Assembly (NCBI GenBank): GCA_030264375.1
Contig: JASCQW010000105.1
Coordinates: 39,835,414-39,899,406, forward strand
Source of the DNA: Carcharhinus longimanus
Taxonomy: Eukaryota
Reading direction: 5' to 3'
Length of the DNA stretch: 63,993 bases
The position numbers and the translations under genes are program-made. Positions 19,654-57,599 of this stretch are shown one piece after another (the stretch's first letter is position 1; the number at the start of each line of letters is the position of its first letter). The notes beneath the pieces are model-generated. The model did not search any database. It saw nothing but the letters and a program-made list of their open reading frames with translations, and was not told where the DNA came from.

Positions 19654-21970
19654 AACCTCATTAAAAAAAAGTCAAATACAATTACAAAATGACCAACATT
19701 TTAACTTTCAGTTTGGATGTGAAATTTTAACTTTGTTTCTTTCTCCATAGGCCTGTTGAGTGTTTCTACACTTTGTTTATATTTCAGGTTTCCAGCATCC
19801 GCACTATTTTGCCATCACTTTTTATTTTGTTACCTTCTTTTCCATAAATTCACTAAAATTTTTAATGGAACCCTCTTTGCACAAAAAGAGTTCACTAAAC
19901 CAATTTTGATGAGGGAAAAGAACGAATGGTTAAATTCTATGACCCCTACCACCGGTGGTGGTACTTCTGGTTTCACCAGAGTCAGTGGAGTTTTGAACAG
20001 CTCGCCATGTTTTTCAGCCCCACCCCACCCAGAAAGAGCCATAAAATTCTGCCCTGTGTCACTTCTATCTTACTGATGTTATGTGCAACTGCCAATGTGA
20101 TGCATTTCAATCAAAGTTTAAAATGTTGACCTGAGTATTCTGTAAATACATGTGGAAAAAATTGTGAAGCACATAGTGGCAAATTACATCGGAAATACTG
20201 GATCACGAGCGCAAGAGATTTATGGCAGCAATTGAGTTTCTTGTTGCTGGAAATGCACGGTAATTGGCATTTGTATTTGGGACTTCTATTGCAAAATTGT
20301 TGTCCTCAACATATTTTGGTAACTGCAAAAAAGTGTCATTAGTGAGGTCATATCATTAACTTTACTGACTGCATCATAGAACGTGGTTGGAACAACTTTT
20401 CAAGCCCAAATGCATGGGAGAAAAGCTATCATCAGTAGCCTAACACACACAGGCCCAGATGCAGCATAATCACATCATGTTACTTAATTTCCTTAAAGTA
20501 TTCAAAAAGTCTGTTGAAATTATCAGAGTAAAATAATATTGATGTTCAATCTCAGTTCTTTGCAGTTCACTTTTTAATAAAAGACTCCTACGAAGACCAC
20601 TGTTGCAAAAGCATTATATATGTTGTAGAACTGAACTATGTTCACAGAAAGATCCCAGGTTTGCTCCCTGGTAGTGCTGAACTGATTGATTGCACCCAAG
20701 AAAGCAGGGCATAAAATTTTTTTAAATCACCACCTCAGAAGATGAGAATTAAAAGTAAAATCCTTTTTAGGAAACTGTTGTGTTCTTTGAGGGGGGGGGG
20801 CGGGGGGGGGGGTTGGTGGGGGGCGGCACTGGAGGGCACCAAGGTGAATCCTAGGCCTGTGCTGAATTTATGGTGCTTAGCCAAGTGACAGTAGTGTTGA
20901 TGCAGGTCCCGAGAGTGAGGATTGAACCTGATACCCTAGACTAAGAAGTATAAAAACTAATCAGATTTACCTTTCCCATTGCTCTAAAGGAATGCTGGTT
21001 GATGTGGGTAAATGTTGGTCCTTGGTATAAACTCTACAAAAAATCTGGCAGACCTATGATGGAAATTGCACAAGAAGTTGCTGAGTACTGTTTCTGAAAT
21101 ATCTGAGGGATATTGCATAAATCATGCCTGATAAAGCTTTCAGTGAACAATGCACTTAATTTCTCACAAAGTTGGCATTGCGCTCATCGTACTCTTTCAG
21201 TGTTATTTAACAATGTAAAATTAGAACAAATATGTTATAGGTCTGAAATGAGCATGTATAATTGGAGTGGAATTTTGGTTCAGCAGGTTTCTTTCTTTTG
21301 CCTTTGCATAGAGTGAGTACGACATTTAATGACTGCAGATGTGGCACTGAGTAGAAGTCCACAATTGTTTTGAATAATTTTGCAACAGGCAAAGACTTGT
21401 GGGAAAGCTATCTCATGCACTTACTTAAAATAAGTTAACGTGGTATTGATTATGAACTGCAACACTGATTTTTGTAGATCAAAGGGTCACTAATGATCAC
21501 TTGCCATATACAAATTAAAACTTGCTGCTGGTAACCAGCAATATTAATGATGTGGTCTGAGGACTGTGATCATTAGTATAGCAGCTTCATTTTGCTAACT
21601 TTAAATGTACAATAACCTACATTATTTATTGTTGATTATACTTTAAAGACACAAAGATGGAATACATGCTGTTTCAAACTGTCTACTAATCTGGACCATT
21701 ACAAACTATAATGTTTAACCCTGACTGACTAATATTTCTAACTTTAACTCTTAGAGTATGAAATTGGAAATGTAAATGAAATACAACTGTAACACGTAAT
21801 GATGTAAAATCTTGCAATACCTGTCCAAACGTATATAGATTTATCACAATCAAAATTGATTATATTATTTATGTAATAAGGGTATTTGATATAGATTTAT
21901 ATATTAATAACATTTTTTTTATTTAAAGAATAAAATCGTGGAGAAGGGAAGCACCAATCAAAAAGACGCC

Positions 21971-22056
21971 ATGCTGTCTGCAACCCCCGTGTATGGTAAC
22001 CTTCACAGCTGGATGAGTACAGATAGGGTCCGCATGTGTGGAATTAATGAAGATGG
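21971..22056 (+). CDS. BCOR: BCOR first coding exon (human exon 2 equivalent); exon starts at 21929 with 42 nt of 5' UTR
   Basis: Translates [28 protein letters not shown], near-identical to the vertebrate BCOR N-terminus (MLSATPLYGNVHSWM...RVRMCG). Kozak context GCC-ATG, acceptor tttttttatttaaAG ending 21928, donor GG|gtaaga, phase 2. Confidence 0.97.
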
Positions 22057-22564
22057 GTAAGACAAGTTACATTTTTGCTTGGCACTAAGAAAAACTACTT
22101 TTTGGCTCGGATTTTGCCGTTGTAATGATGGTAAATCTGTCCGCACTTGCCATCATTACTCTGTGAAACTGACAGTACCTTCTGGTGTCAGTACATGCAC
22201 AGTTAAACACATATATCCAGAAGTCGCTGTCAGTATTTCCATATTTCTCTACAGAGTATGCTAGTGGAAGTTCTCACAGAAAGAAATCAGCTAGAAATCA
22301 ATGATTTGACATGGACTTTCACTTATTACACTATTATTCTTGCTGTAAAAGCATTTGAAAATGTTACATCTTGTTGAATAAGGTGTAGCCTGGTTTATAA
22401 TGACATCCTAATTTATAATTCCAGCTGAGCAACCTCTCTGGCCCTGAAAAATTAATCCTTTTTGTGGAATGTCAAATTTCTCCATTTCATGCTAAAAATT
22501 CCATAGATATACTTTTCCTCTTTTATGTTTGATTTTTCGGCTTCTACCTTAATCCCATTTTGTG

Positions 22565-35233: not shown

Positions 35234-38095
35234 GTGGACACAGCCTCAGTGAGACAGATTGATCGTCTTAGAGCTGCCAGTGGGATCATGCAAGAAGAAC
35301 TGAGGAGCCATAATGGTATTATGTATCCTACTGCACGTGGGCTTAGAAATGAAAAGGAACAAGAGGCTGCAGTTGCAATGGCCAGCTTGGGATTTATGAC
35401 TGACAGAATATCTGATTTGAATTATAAATCACATCCGTCAGAAACCCTAGAAAATGGCAGCGGTTGCACAAAGCCCCATGAAAGCTTCAGCACACTGTAC
35501 AAATCACCAACTGGACTACAAAACACTGCTGGTGCGAGAGGTGAACCATTGGGACTAGAAGGATCCTCGGCTGGTAAACAAACTCCAGTAAATGGAACCG
35601 GTCCTAATTATCTGCGAATTCCATGGGTTAGCCCATTCATGGAGAGCCCAGCTCCAGGGATGTATCCATTTGTGGACTCGCCAAGCAAGTACCCAATGAA
35701 CATGTATAAAACATGCTTGATACCTTCGCAGAATTCTTATGGCTTACCACAACACATCTCCTATTCACCTGTCTGTAGTCACAGTGATCGCTTCTTGTAC
35801 ATACCACCTCCCCATTACGGTTTGCCTCATATACCTTCATCTCTTCCTTCCCCACTAAGGATTACACCGGCTGCAACATCACCTATAATGTCTTCTATGG
35901 TTCATTGTCCTGATAAATGTCTATCAGGCATAATGACAGGTAATCCTAGATTGCAGGTTGATCCACACATTTTGACACATCAGATACCTAGTAGCAAGAA
36001 ATCGAGGGCTACAGCTAGTGAAAAGTCAAATGCTAGTAGCATTTCTACGGACCCTGCTTCACTGTTGCAATCTCCCAAGCCACCTTCCCGTCTTCATCTA
36101 TCCTCGTCACAAATCGGAGAGAGCTCTTCAGAATTTCAGAAACATCTTGCCAGGATATCTGGTCCTACTTCTGCAATGCCACTTCCACATGGTTACTTAA
36201 GCCTAAGTAGTGAATTTACTTCTCCGGCACGATCAACAAGCAGTAAAAATTCAAAACTACCAGAACCTAGTGAAAATTTCCAACAAACAATAACACATGC
36301 ACGAAACTCTCAGCCTGAACAAAAAACTACTAAGTCTCCATCACAGCAAGAAACACAAACACCCACCAAAGACTGCAATGAGAAGCCTCTAGATCTGTCT
36401 TCTAAAGTAGGCTGTGGTGAGACATCGAATGATCAGGTATCAAAGGCTGAAAGTACTGATAAGGTGGTGCCAGCATTAGCACCTGGCAAATGGCGAAACA
36501 ACTCCTCGCTGTCTGGCAGGGAAACACTGTCTAGCAGGGAAACTCATCCTGAAGGTTTTTCAACTTCAACACACAGTGATCTCCCTATTGAAAGACCTGC
36601 TATTATCAACAAATTGCACTCTACCTGGGCCATTCCTGGTACTAGTTCACCTGGAGACCATCAAACCAGTAGCATCTTGGTGAGCAATAAAACACTAGAG
36701 CGTATAATTCCCCATCAGAGGAGTTCCTCGTGCCCTAGGATTGGGAGTTCCAATGGTTCTGTAAATCATATTCCATGTTCAGTCTCTGGATTGGGCCGAC
36801 CTGCTTCTGCTTCACCATCGCCTAATGTTAGTACTGAATGGGGCCACTCTGAAAAGACCCATAGGAATAACTCCTCAAACAAAACATCTGTGATTCACCA
36901 AACAGGGCAGTCCTCTCCAGTACCCAGTAAGCAAACTAAAGGGACCAAAGGTGGTTGTCAGGATTTTGTTTCACATGTAACTGAAAGTGGTCATTCATCA
37001 AGTTCAATATTTCTAACCCCAAATGAAACATTTCTTTCGCCACCTTTACCATACCCAAACAGATATTTCACCTACTCTACACCAGAAGGAATCCCAATTG
37101 GCCATCTCCCCTTACCTGATAAAGGACTTGTATTTCCCCATCCTGCCTTATTGCCTAATGGCAATTTATATGCAGGAAACCTGGCACCAAAGCACAGACT
37201 TTCTTATAGCAGCTTGCCAACGTGCAGAGGTGAATACGTGTTTCACAACACTCAACATTTAATCAGCCCCATCATCTCGCCACACACTTCTCAAGAAGAG
37301 AAAAGGAGTGAGGGAACACAGCGGCGATCCAGATCACATGATCGGCTTCGATGCAGTGAAGAGCCAGTTAACAGAGAGAGACCATCAGAGATTTCACAGA
37401 AGTTAAATGCAACTCAGCAACATGTTTCAGCTGGAGCTGAACTCTCATGTAATAATCCAAAGAATCATGGCAAAACAGTTGCCAAAGATAACAAGGACAA
37501 ACATTTAATCATAGAACACACTGATCAATGGGGAAAAATTGAAGCAAAAGCATCTAAAAAAAGCATCCTGCTAGAAGGGAACAACAAACAATATTCTGCA
37601 AAGGAAATCAGTGAGAGAACAGCTGACCCTGCAGAAGCCAGCGTCATACAAGATAGTGTCCAAAAAGACAAAGATGGCCATAAGGCAGTAGAGATGTGTA
37701 GCTCATCACAGGGTCAGTGTTTACCAAATCAGAACTTAAACAAAAATTTTATTTCAGACTGCCAAAGTAAAGAGAGTGCAACAGTTCTGGTCGCTGACCT
37801 AGCAGCGAATGGTCGCATAGTTGATGGTGTTGCCACATCTTCGGGCAACACACATACCGTTAAGGAACTTGGTGCTGAAACTGAGCAGTTTTTGGCTCAA
37901 TTGAATCACAGTGATACCAAAGACAGAACTGATGACTTGGACATAGCAGCTGCTAAATTTATGAAGCCGAAAAAATCTAACCTAACAAAACGAATTGCAA
38001 ACTCAGCTGGGTATGTGGGAGATAAATTTAAGTGTGTCACAACAGAACTCTATGCTGACTCTAGCCAGCTTAGTAGAGAACAGCGAGCATTACAG
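35234..38095 (+). CDS. BCOR: BCOR large exon (human exon 4 equivalent), 2862 nt / 954 codons
   Basis: The 957-aa ORF carries BCOR hallmarks YLRIPWVSPFME, RFLYIPPPHY, KPLDLSSK (PXDLS at 36386-36400), QRSSSCPR and KRIANSAGYVGDKFKCVTTELYADSSQLSREQRALQ. Acceptor ctgtctAG|GTG, donor CAG|gtgagt. Confidence 0.99.
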
Positions 38096-39414: not shown

Positions 39415-39471
39415 ATGGAAGGATTATCACAAGAGGACAGTATTTTATATCAGCCTGCTGCTTACTGTGAG
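39415..39471 (+). CDS. BCOR: BCOR small exon (human exon 5 equivalent, alternatively spliced in mammals)
   Basis: atAG|ATG...GAG|gtcagt. 57 nt encoding MEGLSQEDSILYQPAAYCE versus human MEGLQEDSILCLPAAYCE. Phase 0-0. Confidence 0.95.
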
Positions 39472-39884: not shown

Positions 39885-40065
39885 CGTGCTATGATGCGTT
39901 TCTCTGAGCTCGAGATGAAGCAACGGGATGATCGAGTATCTGAAGACTCATTAGAGGACAGCAAATTAAGTGACACAGAGAGCAAAATCTTCATGGGAAA
40001 GAAGGAGAAGAAGTCAAAGGGAGATTCAGAAGAAGAGAATACTTCAGTGGAAAATTTTGATGACC
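39885..40065 (+). CDS. BCOR: BCOR exon (human exon 6 equivalent)
   Basis: ttctAG|CGT, encodes RAMMRFSELEMKQRDDRVSED..., matching BCOR RAMMRFSELEMKE. Donor C|gtgagt, phase 0-1. Confidence 0.96.
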
Positions 40066-41630
40066 GTGAGTGATATCAGCAATTGCAATGTTAAAAGGTT
40101 ATTTGTACTGTTAAAATGTTGACTATAATCTCTAGTACTGATCAGTGCACTTAAATTCCCATGAAGTCATTGTCTTATTGATAGCTTATTCATTATCACA
40201 ATAAAGTGACAAATATGATGAAAGGTATAGTATCTCTCCAAAATGTCTACAAAATGGAAGTATGACATGGTTAGAACTGCTTATTCTATTGCCAATGAGG
40301 TTATATTTGGAATAGACATTGCAGATCTACTATGGTGTATACAATTTAGTGATTGGACTACTTGGACAATAAAATCAGCAACGATTGAGAAACTTTGAAC
40401 TTGTTCAGACAAGTAAGGACTTTTACACAGTTAGCTATAAAATGCTGAGAATTAGGCTTTTTAATTCAGTAATCTTGACAATCTGCTATTTTTCACATTG
40501 TACACAAGTAAACTAATTTACTGAGCAGCATATTTGTGCTGTGCTTCTTGGAACTTCATCAGGTTTCATGTAACCATAGTATGGAATATTTATTATGCAG
40601 TCATATAATGTACATGCATATTACAACAAACAAAACAGCTAGCATTGATAAAACAAAAGTCNNNNNNNNNNNNNNNNNNNNNNNNNNNNNNNNNNNNNNN
40701 NNNNNNNNNNNNNNNNNNNNNNNNNNNNNNNNNNNNNNNNNNNNNNNNNNNNNNNNNNNNNNNNNNNNNNNNNNNNNNNNNNNNNNNNNNNNNNNATCTG
40801 TCGTGGCTCAGTTCCACATTCCCACCCTCTCCCCATAACCCTTAATCCCCTCTCTTATCAAAAACCCATCAATAGGAAATCATATGACAACATCCAGCCA
40901 CCATGCCATAGGAAAACAAAATCAACAATATTTGTTATTATTATTATTTATATATCTGTTCCAAGAATCTATCCAATATAGAGTCTTGAACAGCTATATT
41001 TTGTATTATTGATTATCATTGCCTGTACTAATTTCCCTAACATATGTTGCATTCTAATTTGTCAGCAAGTACTCAGAAATCACCAACGTTGTAGCTTATT
41101 TCTATGTACGTCCAAAATAATGCTAACTTAAATGTATGTACATGACCAAGAAAAAATGTCCTGAAACTACTTTGTTGCAACATGCTATTTAGTGATACTT
41201 GAAGTGCTTCGCAGTCTGTTTTACTAACTTGTCTGCAACTGAGACCGATAGCTGCCATAATATTTTGACTGTTTTGAAATTTAGTGAATTTTTAAATACA
41301 AGCAACGGTAGCATCTAAAATAAACTTGCTAGGAAAATTGCCACGTCTGCCTGAAGTGCTTTCCCACAAGAGATGAAAAGTCTTTGGGCCATTTAGCAAC
41401 ACTATGGAAGCTCCACCCTGACTATTTTTATGTGGAAGATGAAAGGCAAATATGTATACAAGCTTACTTACAGGTGTATGATGGTTTTTGAAAATAGTTT
41501 TGAAACCCCAGTTTTAAACAGAAGAGCCACAATACCAACAAGCCTACTTCAATTATGGTCAAGGAGAAGAGAGGGGTTTTTAAACAACAAAATTCAGCAA
41601 TTATGATTTTCGGCTACTGAAATTACATTG

Positions 41631-41792
41631 AGAAGTCTCATGACACCAGATTAAAGTCCAACAGGTTTATTTGGAATCATGAGCTTTCAGAGCACTGCTC
41701 CTTCACTTGATAATTCCAGATAAACCTGTTGGACTTTAAGCCGGTGTTGTGTGAGAATTCTTACTGTGCCCACCCCAGCTGGCATCTCCACA
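41631..41792. mobile_element. Palindromic Penelope-derived short element; family ends also at 5280-5352 and 6820-6853
   Basis: Arm gacaccagattaaagtccaacaggtttatttggaat pairs with attccagataaacctgttggactttaagccggtgtt. Confidence 0.75.
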
Positions 41793-43852
41793 TTGAAACT
41801 ACATTGTTCTCGTTCATTTCAAAACTCCTTAATCTACTGGTTTTGGAAGCAAATGAAGTCATTTCAGAAACATCTTTATCTCAGATTGTGCTTTCAAGAT
41901 CATTGTCAGGTAGCAACCATTGACCGGCTGTAACATCATCCGTTAAATGAATTGGACGGCCCTATTTAAAAATAATAATGAAAGGGTTGAGTTTACACTT
42001 TGGATGCAACCATGAAATTGCATTGAAAATTGTGCTGGCTGAGTTACAGTTCAAGATTCAATACCATCTTTGATGGACCAACAATCAGACGGCATTATAG
42101 AGTGCCAGCATTTATCCTTTTTTCTGATTAAAATGTACTTGTTAATGTATTGTAAGATTGGTAATCTGGTCCAGAGTAACCTGATTTAAAATCACTAAAA
42201 AACAACTTTAAGGAGCTACGCTGAATTGTCTATCAGTTCTAATGTTGTAAAGAATTACTTAATAAATTACATATTCTACGGCATGAAAAAACTTTAAATG
42301 CCTTATCTTGCTAGCACGATTGACAGAATCTCACTATTTTCACATGGGGGGGGAACATGGCCAGTTTTGTCAAAGGTCTTGATCTCGGTAAATTGAATCT
42401 TAAACTAGCAAAACAATTGAAGGAAATATGCCCATTAACAGTTTTGTTCATAACATGCCTCTGTTTGAAATTTCTTGATCTTTTGCCAATTTTGGCCAAC
42501 TTTGCTTGGATTGTGTAAATGAGCTGATATGTGAAATAGTACGATTGTAGAGAGTACAGAATTAATGATCTACTGAATTCATTATTGTTCTATTGTTAAA
42601 TCCAATGTTTTTCAATACCAACTACCTCTGTATTTAATCTCCAGTATTTCAGTGAGTTGTATGATTATCACTGGTAGTATTTTAGTGTCATACAGTTTTT
42701 AATGCTTTATTCAGACCATCATCCTGAGTAGAGAAAGCTGGCCTATCTCCGTGATCATATCAGCCAATAGGTTCTTGCTGCACAAGGTCATTCATTAATG
42801 CTGCTGAATTAGTGGTTGACACTTCAATTCCCTGTTAGTCTACTTACTCACCTGCCAATCATCTGACAGTGAAAGACCAGTAATGAAACTGCCTGGTTGC
42901 TGTGGTGAATTGAAACTATTACCATGACAACAATGCTATGGAGTATTTCCATGGTACACCACATAGTGATAAATTACGGGATGTGCCATGTGTCATATGA
43001 TTCTTGTTAGCTGTGATTAGGTAATTTAAGCAACCACAAATAATTCACTGTTATACAAGTGATTGTCATGTGTTGGTCAGAAATTTTGAGCGCTACTGAT
43101 AAAACATTGTATTTACAGCAACATCAGTAAGTTAGATTTATGTTGTAAGAAGTTCTCTTCCTAAACTCACTGACGTATGGTACATTACTGTTTCAGTGGT
43201 GCTGGTAGTCCTTGCATAATACATATCTGTTCTTTAAGTATGAGCCAAAGCAGTAACTGTTGACAGACTATCAGACCACAGCTCAGCATTGCATTTAAGC
43301 TTCCACCTGTCCTCAGCCAGTGTGCCCACACCTATACTTTCCAACTATCCAAGCTGAGGGACATGGCTCATCTGTGATTAACTAACACAACACAGACCAA
43401 CTGTCAAACTGCTGGCTTCTTAGTCTATATGGCTTGGTAGCATAATAAGTGTGCTCCTGAATGGCAGAGAAATACTTTTGGATTCTCATTACAGGTCACC
43501 ATCCAATGACTCTTGGTGTAACATCTAAGTGTGATATAATTGATCAGAATGAGAGCACAGAAATAGAATTTGAACAATGACTCTTGAAATTCCTGCTGAT
43601 GATATTAGCAAACAAGTGTTTTAAAACATTCAAAGAACATTGCAACATTCATTTTTTAATACAAGCATTAACTCATTTATTTTAAAAAGGCTAATGCTTT
43701 TTACAGTAAATCAGAAAGATTACACGAATGCATCAAGCGTTCATACTTTAATAACATAAACGGTAATTTCAGAGTTTTATGATTGGTCAAATTGTCAATT
43801 TATCAGATACAATCAAAAAACTGTATTTTTATTTTTATTTCTTTTAAATTAG

Positions 43853-43930
43853 CTTTCCGAAAGAAACAAAAGAATGGGTTCCGAGATTTCATTCCACTTC
43901 TTCTAAAAGTGCAAACACAAAACCAGTCTG
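43853..43930 (+). CDS. BCOR: Candidate additional BCOR exon (78 nt, phase 1-1) with a BCORL1-like FRDFIP motif
   Basis: Strong acceptor tgtatttttatttttatttcttttaaattAG and donor G|gtatgt. Frame-preserving with no stop codon; encodes (P)FRKKQKNGFRDFIPLLLKVQTQNQS(D). Confidence 0.75.
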
Positions 43931-44633
43931 GTATGTACACATTCTGCTTTTGCAGAGAAAGAATCAAGAAATATTAAGTCTTCATACATTTTAATCCTAA
44001 TTAAGACATTATTAATTTAGCAAAAGAAATTCTGCTTGGACCAGAGCTTTTTTGTAATTCTGTGTTTAAATCTTGAATGTGTTTATGCGGACTCAAATAG
44101 GAACTAATGTTTTTAATTTCCATAATGTACAACTTTATATTCTACAGCTAACTATTATTCTGGAAAAAATGAACATTACATAAGAAGAACTAAAACAGAG
44201 TAGGCCCCTTTCCACATCTGAAATCATTATTTTTTAATTTTGAAATAATTATAAAAATCAGTCACCTGCTCATAAAAAATAGAATCGTAGAAATGTCAGC
44301 AAGGGAGACGCTTGGCCTGCAATGTTTGTGCCACTGTTGCTGTCGCTCTACGGGGCTACCTGCTTTAATCCAACCTTCTTGCTCTTTCATTGTACCCTTA
44401 ACAATTTTCTTGAAATGTTAGCCATGACTCAATTTTAAAAGTCTCTTGCAATATTGTGATGATTAGTGTCATAAAACCTTTGTGCAGGAAAATGTTCCCA
44501 ACTTCCCTTGTATGTTTCTAATACTAATCCTCAATTTATGCCACTTGCTACCTGTTTACTAACTAGTCCAAATAATCTTTCATTAATTACCTCTCATAGC
44601 TATTTAAAATTTTGGCCACACCACAGCCCAGCA

Positions 44634-47925: not shown

Positions 47926-48282
47926 ATGATCCAGATGGTAATGCAAAACGCATAGATGGATTGGTTGAAAATTATAAGAATGGGGAATATTGGACTGATG
48001 GAACCAACACAGAGAATTTCACCACTGAGAAAGAACCTGCACCTAATGAGGACTTTGCAAAAACTCTACAAACATATCATCACAAGGATGCTAACTACAG
48101 TTCTGAGTCAAGTTTTGACAAGAATAGCCAATATTGCGAGGGAAGGTTACAGGACAAGCAGGAAGAAATAAACACTCATGAAGTACAATCAGAGATGAAG
48201 GGATATAATGAGAAATGCATCAGTCAAGCTGTGGAGCCAGAAATTTTTAAGATGAAAAGAAAGAGACGAAGTTCCATCATAG
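47926..48282 (+). CDS. BCOR: BCOR exon (human exon 7 equivalent)
   Basis: tttttctgcAG|AT, open frame DPDGNAKRIDGLVENYKNGEYW...EIFKMKRKRRSSII, ending in a basic NLS-like cluster like human LKAKRRRVSK. Donor G|gtgaga, phase 1-1. Body is diverged. Confidence 0.85.
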
Positions 48283-57264: not shown

Positions 57265-57599
57265 GTTTCGCTACGCCCCCAGTCTCCCCTAGGAAAAGGA
57301 CAGTTTCATCTGGCACCACAAGCAGCAACTGGCAAGGACAGCAAAAAACCAGCACACCAGTGTCACGATCATCAGCTAAACGACAGAGGAACAAAGAAAG
57401 CCACAAACGTGGTGTCTTGTGTATTGGAGAGGAAGAGGATCATTTATTTTCACCAATTTCACCAAAGTATTCAAACACAGAACGAGAAAAGCCTTCAGGA
57501 AAGCGCCAGTGTAAAACAAAACACCTAATGCGTCAGGATAGAAGAAGGTCATCGCTGACAGCAGATGACTCAACTGATGTTGAGAGTTCAGAAGACAAG
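57265..57599 (+). CDS. BCOR: BCOR exon (human exon 9 equivalent); gene continues beyond the window
   Basis: tttgtttAG|GT, encodes GFATPPVSPRK...VLCIGEEED...EKPSGKRQCKTKHL...SEDK, matching human VLCADEEED...EKPSGKRLCKTKHL. Donor AAG|gtataa, phase 1-0. Confidence 0.95.

Follow-up and report, generated by a model that had tools for sequence, protein, structure and literature searches.

BCOR and BCORL1 are human disease genes that have their ankyrin and PUFD regions in common and differ upstream of them, and, according to sections of a 2026 review, their long middle parts differ widely and are poorly mapped (PMC13703134). The window analysed here, a stretch of 63,993 nucleotides from the shark Carcharhinus longimanus, carries a BCOR gene in which the intron between the equivalents of exons 6 and 7 holds a 78-nt open segment. 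An earlier note, made from the sequence alone, had proposed this segment as a hidden exon encoding a BCORL1-type motif. The locus thus raises the question of whether the segment is a genuine part of BCOR, from where it derives and what its peptide could do.

The identity of the gene follows from several features (Table 1). Its large exon is 97% identical to the RefSeq BCOR of Mustelus asterias (P0001), a protein which contains all three Pfam regions (BCOR PF15808, ankyrin repeats and PUFD PF16553). The BCOR region, ankyrin repeats and PUFD occur in one gene whose best match is BCOR over BCORL1, and only two PUFD genes were found in this genome; the exons for the ankyrin repeats and PUFD are on contig C105 outside the window. 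The NLKVCIELTGL segment of the exon 8 equivalent is presumably the AF9-binding region of BCOR, and BCOR isoforms devoid of the AF9-binding segment occur. The window contains 13 runs of N.

Table 1. Features of the C. longimanus BCOR gene in the window (position 1 is the first nucleotide of the window).
Feature	Position	Strand	Basis
BCOR large exon (exon 4 equivalent), 2862 nt, phase 0-0	35234..38095	+	97% to Mustelus P0001; contig joints
Cassette exon (exon 5 equivalent), 57 nt	39415..39471	+	contig joints
Exon 6 equivalent, 181 nt, phase 0-1; upstream partner	39885..40065	+	sequence, contigs
Acceptor of the 78-nt exon: T-rich polypyrimidine tract and AG	43826..43852	+	sequence; contig joint at 43853
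78-nt BCOR exon, phase 1-1, encoding (P)FRKKQKNGFRDFIPLLLKVQTQNQS(D)	43853..43930	+	sequence, spliced contigs, chondrichthyan models, reciprocal match
GTATGT donor of the 78-nt exon	43931..43936	+	sequence; contig cover stops at 43930 in four runs
Exon 7 equivalent, 357 nt, phase 1-1; downstream partner	47926..48282	+	sequence; junction inferred from public protein models
Exon 8 equivalent with the NLKVCIELTGL segment	50231..50596	+	tblastn of P0001; boundaries from sequence, not RNA
Exon 9 equivalent with EKPSGKRQCKTKH	57265..57599	+	tblastn, sequence; not RNA

Three further observations concern the upstream part of the gene. In BCOR models of shark and chimaera, MLSATPLY is preceded by 78 additional N-terminal residues which are missing from the aligned coelacanth and turtle models; residues 64-78 of this extension are encoded by an exon at 21926-22057, and residues 1-63 were not found in the window. 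An N-terminal R.RMCGI.ED motif is common to BCOR and BCORL1. Lastly, PLDLS is found in BCOR too (large exon, 35234-38095; P0001 residue 523), in 145 of 148 bony-vertebrate and 77 of 78 chondrichthyan models; PXDLS is presented as a BCORL1 feature in parts of the review literature (PMC13703134).

The boundaries 43853-43930, the splice sites, the 1-1 phase and the open frame given in the earlier note proved exact. The acceptor reads ...tttttatttttatttcttttaaattag with its last base at 43852, the donor reads G/gtatgt, and the 78 nt between them contain no in-frame stop. Exon 6 ends ...GAC C/gtgagt at 40065 in phase 1, and exon 7 begins ag/AT GAT CCA at 47926, such that an in-silico join of the three exons gives the stop-free reading ...ENFDD-PFRKKQKNGFRDFIPLLLKVQTQNQS-DDPDG...; a direct join of exon 6 to exon 7 is likewise in frame. 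However, splice signals alone are weak evidence for this exon, because the same 7.86-kb intron contains 53 chance AG..GT segments of 60-102 nt that are stop-free and of phase 1-1, two of which survive a stricter pyrimidine and donor filter. The decision therefore falls to splicing and homology. Two short high-copy repeats, at 40796-40872 and 41625-41776, lie in the intron upstream of the exon and draw hundreds of unrelated contigs.

Splicing was read from the contigs of four runs (organisms A-D, from four studies), whose status as RNA is a guess. In all four, exon 6 is joined to 43853 across a 3787-nt intron, which is the 40065>43853 junction anticipated in the earlier note, and each contig covers exactly 43853-43930 with no nucleotide difference; in run X7 the joint is placed two letters earlier, with two other letters between. 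The downstream junction, 43930>47926, comes not from contig joints but from public protein models reading ...QNQSDDLDG... and from one contig in which the remaining 357 letters equal the length of exon 7. It had also been suggested that the exon could be a cassette. Shark BCOR has so far given no sign of this: contigs continue unbroken beyond the end of exon 6 at 40065 in 4/4 runs, and a direct join of exons 6 and 7 is seen in 0 of 78 chondrichthyan BCOR models, a single chimaera model among them skipping the 78-nt exon along with exon 7. Within the limit that both contigs and models drop rare forms, the exon appears to be constitutive in sharks. The 57-nt exon 5 serves as a positive control that contigs can reveal alternative splicing, as it is both included and skipped in X1 and X6 and skipped in X2 and X7 (joints 38093>39413, 39469>39883 and 38093>39883 in X1 and X6, all 'cut +2'). 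The 78-nt segment is a real spliced coding exon of BCOR in cartilaginous fishes. It is not a hidden one, in that RefSeq and Ensembl models of cartilaginous fishes already include it (76 of 78); what is new is its recognition as the BCOR counterpart of a strongly constrained, undescribed motif of BCORL1.

That relationship is seen most directly within the shark's own genome. A search of its 2.68 Gb with the 25-residue BCOR peptide recovered the peptide's own exon and a single further match, on contig C190 (E 0.2), in a gene identified as BCORL1, and the reverse search with the BCORL1 peptide returned the same pair only. The two genes are on different large contigs. The BCORL1 counterpart is an exon of 81 nt, also of phase 1-1 (G000:C190:90138457-90138537), and the order and phase of exons are equal in both paralogues (large exon ending in phase 0, then exons of 0-1, 1-1 for the motif exon, and 1-1). 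Between the two motif exons of this genome, 13 of 25 residues are identical. Alignment of the BCOR peptide to five BCORL1 proteins that bear the motif, from shark, lungfish, frog, caecilian and mole, gave scores of 63-75, with shuffle maxima of 39-45 and none of 1000 shuffles reaching the real score for any of the five; with BCOR of coelacanth and turtle, and with BCORL1 of coelacanth and sturgeon, the score stayed at chance level. The 78-nt BCOR exon is homologous to the 81-nt BCORL1 exon, and the earlier note was correct on this point. The BCORL1 large exon in this assembly is interrupted by a 100-N gap with a frame change (G000:C190:90105600-90105699), which is probably an assembly gap because public models are continuous there.

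Conservation in other chondrichthyans, on which the earlier proposal also depended, is extensive: the BCOR motif is present in 76 of 78 models, chimaera included, and in 14 of 15 cluster representatives, the two misses being the chimaera model described above and a fragment of 596 residues. In BCORL1 of the same group, the exon is present in 65 of 68 models spanning the region and cleanly skipped in the other three (electric ray 1, chimaera 2), six more records being fragments. Among bony vertebrates, BCORL1 models with the motif come from lungfish (4/4), mole (1/1) and a further record pair (2/2 long records), and include/skip pairs that differ by exactly 27 residues come from frog (motif in 1 of 2) and caecilian (2 of 3). 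For human BCORL1 the earlier note had cited a peptide with which that of mole (P0144) is in agreement. The motif is absent from BCORL1 models of coelacanth (0/2) and of sturgeon and paddlefish (0/17 records, 16 of them longer than 1000 residues). Judging from these sequences, BCORL1 seems to have lost the motif at least twice. When the motif region was used alone as a protein query, 11 candidates and 10 matches came back, all of them chondrichthyan BCOR; known positives were missed, every BCORL1 included, and this search therefore carries little weight as to absence in other groups.

Outside the cartilaginous fishes, the BCOR exon is found in none of 148 models (2 coelacanth; 146 turtle, crocodilian and bird), and coelacanth models are thereby without the motif in both paralogues (2 BCOR, 2 BCORL1). 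A motif profile run against the 148 found no domain, even at E 100. This set was drawn from the best 120 of 411 matches and the members of ten clusters, and is confined to coelacanth and sauropsids; all bony-vertebrate absences rest on gene models, not intron DNA. To our knowledge, human BCOR is also without the peptide. The earlier note had proposed that mammalian BCOR lost the exon. The absence itself holds in all 148 models, but it is not specific to mammals: as read from gene models, the loss from BCOR predates mammals, because coelacanth and sauropsid BCOR is already without the exon. It could be argued that there was no loss at all and that bony-vertebrate BCOR retains the exon as a rarely included cassette missed by annotation, especially considering that some BCORL1 models of frog, caecilian, electric ray and chimaera leave out the matching exon, which makes low inclusion plausible. 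We consider this very unlikely; the 148 models come from many independently annotated species, several of them with 5 to 9 BCOR isoforms each, and neither the models nor the profile search yielded a single instance.

The polarity of these differences can be approached from the motif sequences. Of 24 residues, the BCOR motif has 13.0 in common with chondrichthyan BCORL1 and 12.4 with bony-vertebrate BCORL1, which puts it at about the same distance from both, whereas the figure for chondrichthyan against bony-vertebrate BCORL1 is 18.1; silent differences between the two exons of this genome affect 7 of 13 conserved codons. From these values, in a comparison within jawed vertebrates, we infer that divergence at the duplication, before the split of sharks from bony fishes, fits better than later copying from shark BCORL1, in support of the pre-duplication origin that had been proposed. 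A copying event would mean that early cartilaginous fishes transferred the exon from BCORL1 to BCOR by gene conversion and that bony-vertebrate BCOR never had it, in keeping with the facts that within BCOR the exon is seen in cartilaginous fishes only and that the comparison includes no jawless or invertebrate outgroup. However, the BCOR motif is no closer to shark than to bony-vertebrate BCORL1, the conserved codons show the silent differences given above, each gene has its own large contig, and position and phase of the exon correspond in the two genes, all of which makes gene conversion extremely improbable. In the account that we prefer, the pre-duplication gene had the exon and both paralogues would have inherited it. 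BCOR would then have lost it once, either on the lineage that leads to coelacanth and amniotes or already at the root of the bony vertebrates, and BCORL1 would have lost it separately in coelacanth and in sturgeons and paddlefish, the symmetrical phase permitting the exon to be skipped or deleted without a frameshift. We regard this evolutionary account as highly probable on the sequences compared.

The pattern of conservation differs between the paralogues. In BCORL1 the motif reads F-x-D-F-I-P-V-V-L-x-x-R-T-R-S-Q-S, and the 16-residue window beginning at its first F is the best one upstream of the ankyrin repeats, with an identity of 0.88 against a median of 0.26 across eight BCORL1 proteins from shark to mole, in a ranking that took in motif-bearing sequences only; the CtBP-binding PLDLS window, at 0.65, falls below it. 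The same window is the third-best island common to BCOR and BCORL1, and six of its residues (F, D, F, I, P and L) do not vary in any group or between the paralogues. In eight chondrichthyan BCORs, by comparison, conservation of the 16-residue window does not exceed the median (0.73 vs 0.77); K..KNGF.DFIP..L.V..N.S is invariant across these aligned shark, ray and chimaera proteins, and the tail drifts. RxRxxS/T is the consensus of a basophilic kinase site. It is present in 29 of 29 motif-bearing BCORL1 models vs 8 of 76 BCOR models (chimaera and Heptranchias only) and is absent from the BCOR peptide of the window itself, a distribution which suggests that an ancestral tail is eroding in BCOR.

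Such erosion could also mean that the exon, although ancestral, is a decaying leftover in shark BCOR and that its function resides in BCORL1 only. The R-T-R-S-Q-S tail is eroded in 68 of the 76 motif-bearing BCOR models, the conservation of the BCOR window is only at the median, and the 148 coelacanth and sauropsid BCOR models do without the exon. Against this, the core string is intact in all eight aligned proteins, the exon is included in 4/4 runs without a nucleotide difference, and no model skips this exon alone. We consider a mere leftover unlikely.

Other islands were noted in passing. Strongly conserved BCORL1 stretches in the large exon (RKTPPMPVLTP, GVANxxPAS and KQEPISI; P0121 residues 431-446, 526-541 and 549-564; G000:C190) are unnamed in the portions of the BCOR/BCORL1 literature covered. 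A mirror case is offered by the end of the large exon, where shark BCORL1 keeps a BCOR-like block (G000:C190:90107313-90107411, L004, against window 37990-38095; ANPSSCIGEKFKC...LNREQQTIQ against ANSAGYVGDKFKC...LSREQRALQ). Chondrichthyan BCOR keeps this block without variation, and BCOR of coelacanth and turtle keeps it nearly so, but it has decayed in bony-vertebrate BCORL1.

A few invariant hydrophobic residues within a charged, disordered linker are the usual anatomy of a short linear docking motif. Structure prediction for a 134-residue region around the exon gave no fold (mean pLDDT 55.6, pTM 0.18, from a 12-row alignment and of low confidence), with pLDDT of 43-69 by block and one helix away from the motif. 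The motif thus lies as a conservation island with few invariant residues in a region predicted to be disordered, and these features, drawn from alignment and modelling, are consistent with the uncharacterised linear motif that the earlier note had envisaged. The peptide had no match in the PDB by sequence, and the best 60 of 292 PDB matches to mole BCORL1 fell on PUFD and ankyrin only; Pfam had no domain over the peptide, the ESM Atlas gave no usable match for two motif-containing stretches, and a second copy of the motif was not found in about 374 kb of the BCOR and BCORL1 loci.

The motif was also compared with established classes. It is not the CtBP-binding PXDLS, since P-x-D-L-S is not in the exon and PLDLS is located elsewhere in both proteins. 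The nuclear-receptor box LXXLL does not fit either, with IPLLL in some BCORs and IPVVL in BCORL1. The HP1-binding PxVxL consensus has P at -2, an invariant V and L at +2; BCORL1 has I-P-V-V-L and BCOR has L or F at the valine position. The canonical PCNA-binding PIP box (Q-x-x-aliphatic-x-x-aromatic-aromatic) has a glutamine and a second aromatic residue that are missing from K-x-x-F-x-D-F-I, and a non-canonical PIP-like mode could still apply. As another option, the peptide could be a nuclear-localisation or basic patch with a kinase site in a linker rather than a specific docking motif, as most copies start K-K/R-x-K and BCORL1 ends in RxRxxS. The invariant residues are, however, the hydrophobic F, F, I, P and L and the aspartate, and it is the basic ones that vary (NKTHK in chimaera); moreover, the predicted nuclear localisation signal of human BCORL1 is elsewhere, at 1328-1336, in the feature map of one report (PMC8005212). 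A basic patch is for us a distinctly remote prospect.

How such a docking motif could act may be outlined in a few steps. First, a globular partner, most probably from among the chromatin or corepressor proteins, would offer a surface on which the invariant hydrophobic core F-x-D-F-I-P-h-h-L (h, hydrophobic), embedded in a charged and disordered linker, could fold; PRC1.1 would thereby gain one optional interaction. Second, the adjoining R-T-R-S-Q-S/T could be a basophilic kinase site that tunes binding in BCORL1, and most shark and ray BCORs would have lost this tail and kept the core. Finally, splicing may act as a further switch of docking in BCORL1. Alternatively, the motif could act intramolecularly, either folding back on the ankyrin-PUFD end of its own protein or forming pairs between two copies. 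Both paralogues retain the ankyrin repeats as well as the motif core, and section 3.2 of the review states that what the ankyrin repeats bind has yet to be characterised (PMC13703134). Nevertheless, the ankyrin repeats and PUFD are equally conserved with or without the motif, and nothing appears to have changed along with its loss; we hold an intramolecular role to be very unlikely. Docking on another protein is retained as the preferred role, and the reading as a whole, that of a BCOR exon homologous to that of BCORL1 which encodes an ancestral short docking motif unevenly kept after the duplication, is in our judgement probable. Against it stand the dispensability of the motif in entire lineages, with coelacanth models devoid of it in either paralogue, its average conservation in shark BCOR, and the fact that no partner emerged from the PDB, Pfam and peptide-display comparisons. 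It is conceivable, and we propose it only tentatively, that a splice-controlled, phospho-switched docking motif constitutes an undescribed third recruitment arm of PRC1.1 that the earliest jawed vertebrates had in both paralogues, and that its loss from BCOR helps to explain the differing partners and diseases of mammalian BCOR and BCORL1.

The motif has so far escaped the literature that could be searched, most subscription papers lying outside it: no paper was found for the strings FRDFIP, RFSELEMK, TRTRSQS and DFIPVVL, and keyword searches returned nothing on it among the papers listed. By mole numbering, which matches human at PLDLS (621), we infer that the core starts near residue 1216 of human BCORL1. 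The features and variants of human BCORL1 set out in the accessible part of one compilation do not list the segment and include none near ~1216 (PMC8005212). In a peptide display screen (PMC8769072), 16 supplement files held no RDFIP or IPVVLST, and BCORL1 peptides occurred at other positions only, among the rows listed. BCOR is not named in the main text of PMC13370473, one text supplement of which had no match, nor in the main text of bioRxiv 10.1101/2022.08.26.505496, whose supplements may include tiles over the region. The portions covered of PMC9755447, PMC8955265, PMC8021618, PMC5348601, PMC9451159 and PMC6595546 held no information on the motif. In endometrial stromal sarcoma, fusions keep BCORL1 exons 5-12 or 7-12, as described in parts of two reports (PMC8955265; PMC5348601). 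The motif exon would be exon 5 or 6 in that numbering, and the shorter fusion (7-12) would therefore be without it, such that the motif would not be needed for that activity.

In summary, comparison with a shark singles out a 26-residue, exon-bounded segment that is probably older than the split between BCOR and BCORL1 and forms the most constrained window of BCORL1 upstream of the ankyrin repeats. The segment is a place to look when judging BCORL1 missense variants, and it makes cheap, direct experiments possible. It often happens that one of two paralogues loses a linear motif, and the surprise is moderate.

Set against known systems, the shark gene is an orthologue of BCOR, the BCL6 corepressor and PRC1.1 scaffold, with exon 5 as a cassette, and it differs in adding the 26-residue exon between exons 6 and 7 that the 148 coelacanth and sauropsid models are without. 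In the covered sections of the review, the named regions of BCOR are the BCL6-binding, AF9-binding, ankyrin and PUFD regions, with no motif of the F-x-D-F-I-P type among them (PMC13703134). The closest likeness is to the 81-nt exon of BCORL1, in the equal position and phase and the invariant F.DFIP..L core; the BCOR exon differs in its length of 78 nt, in having L or F where BCORL1 has V-V after the proline, in the RxRxxS tail, which is mostly lost, and in splicing, since models that skip the exon alone number none in BCOR and come from four species in BCORL1. In a wider sense, the motif resembles the AF9/MLLT3-binding segment of BCOR and the CtBP-binding PXDLS of BCORL1, which are likewise short motifs in a long non-domain part that bring an optional partner to PRC1.1, and the AF9-binding segment is also splice-controlled, according to the same review (PMC13703134). 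Those two segments have shown partners, unlike the F-x-D-F-I-P motif, and do not resemble it in sequence. By analogy of their arrangement, however, they are the likely model for how the F-x-D-F-I-P motif works.
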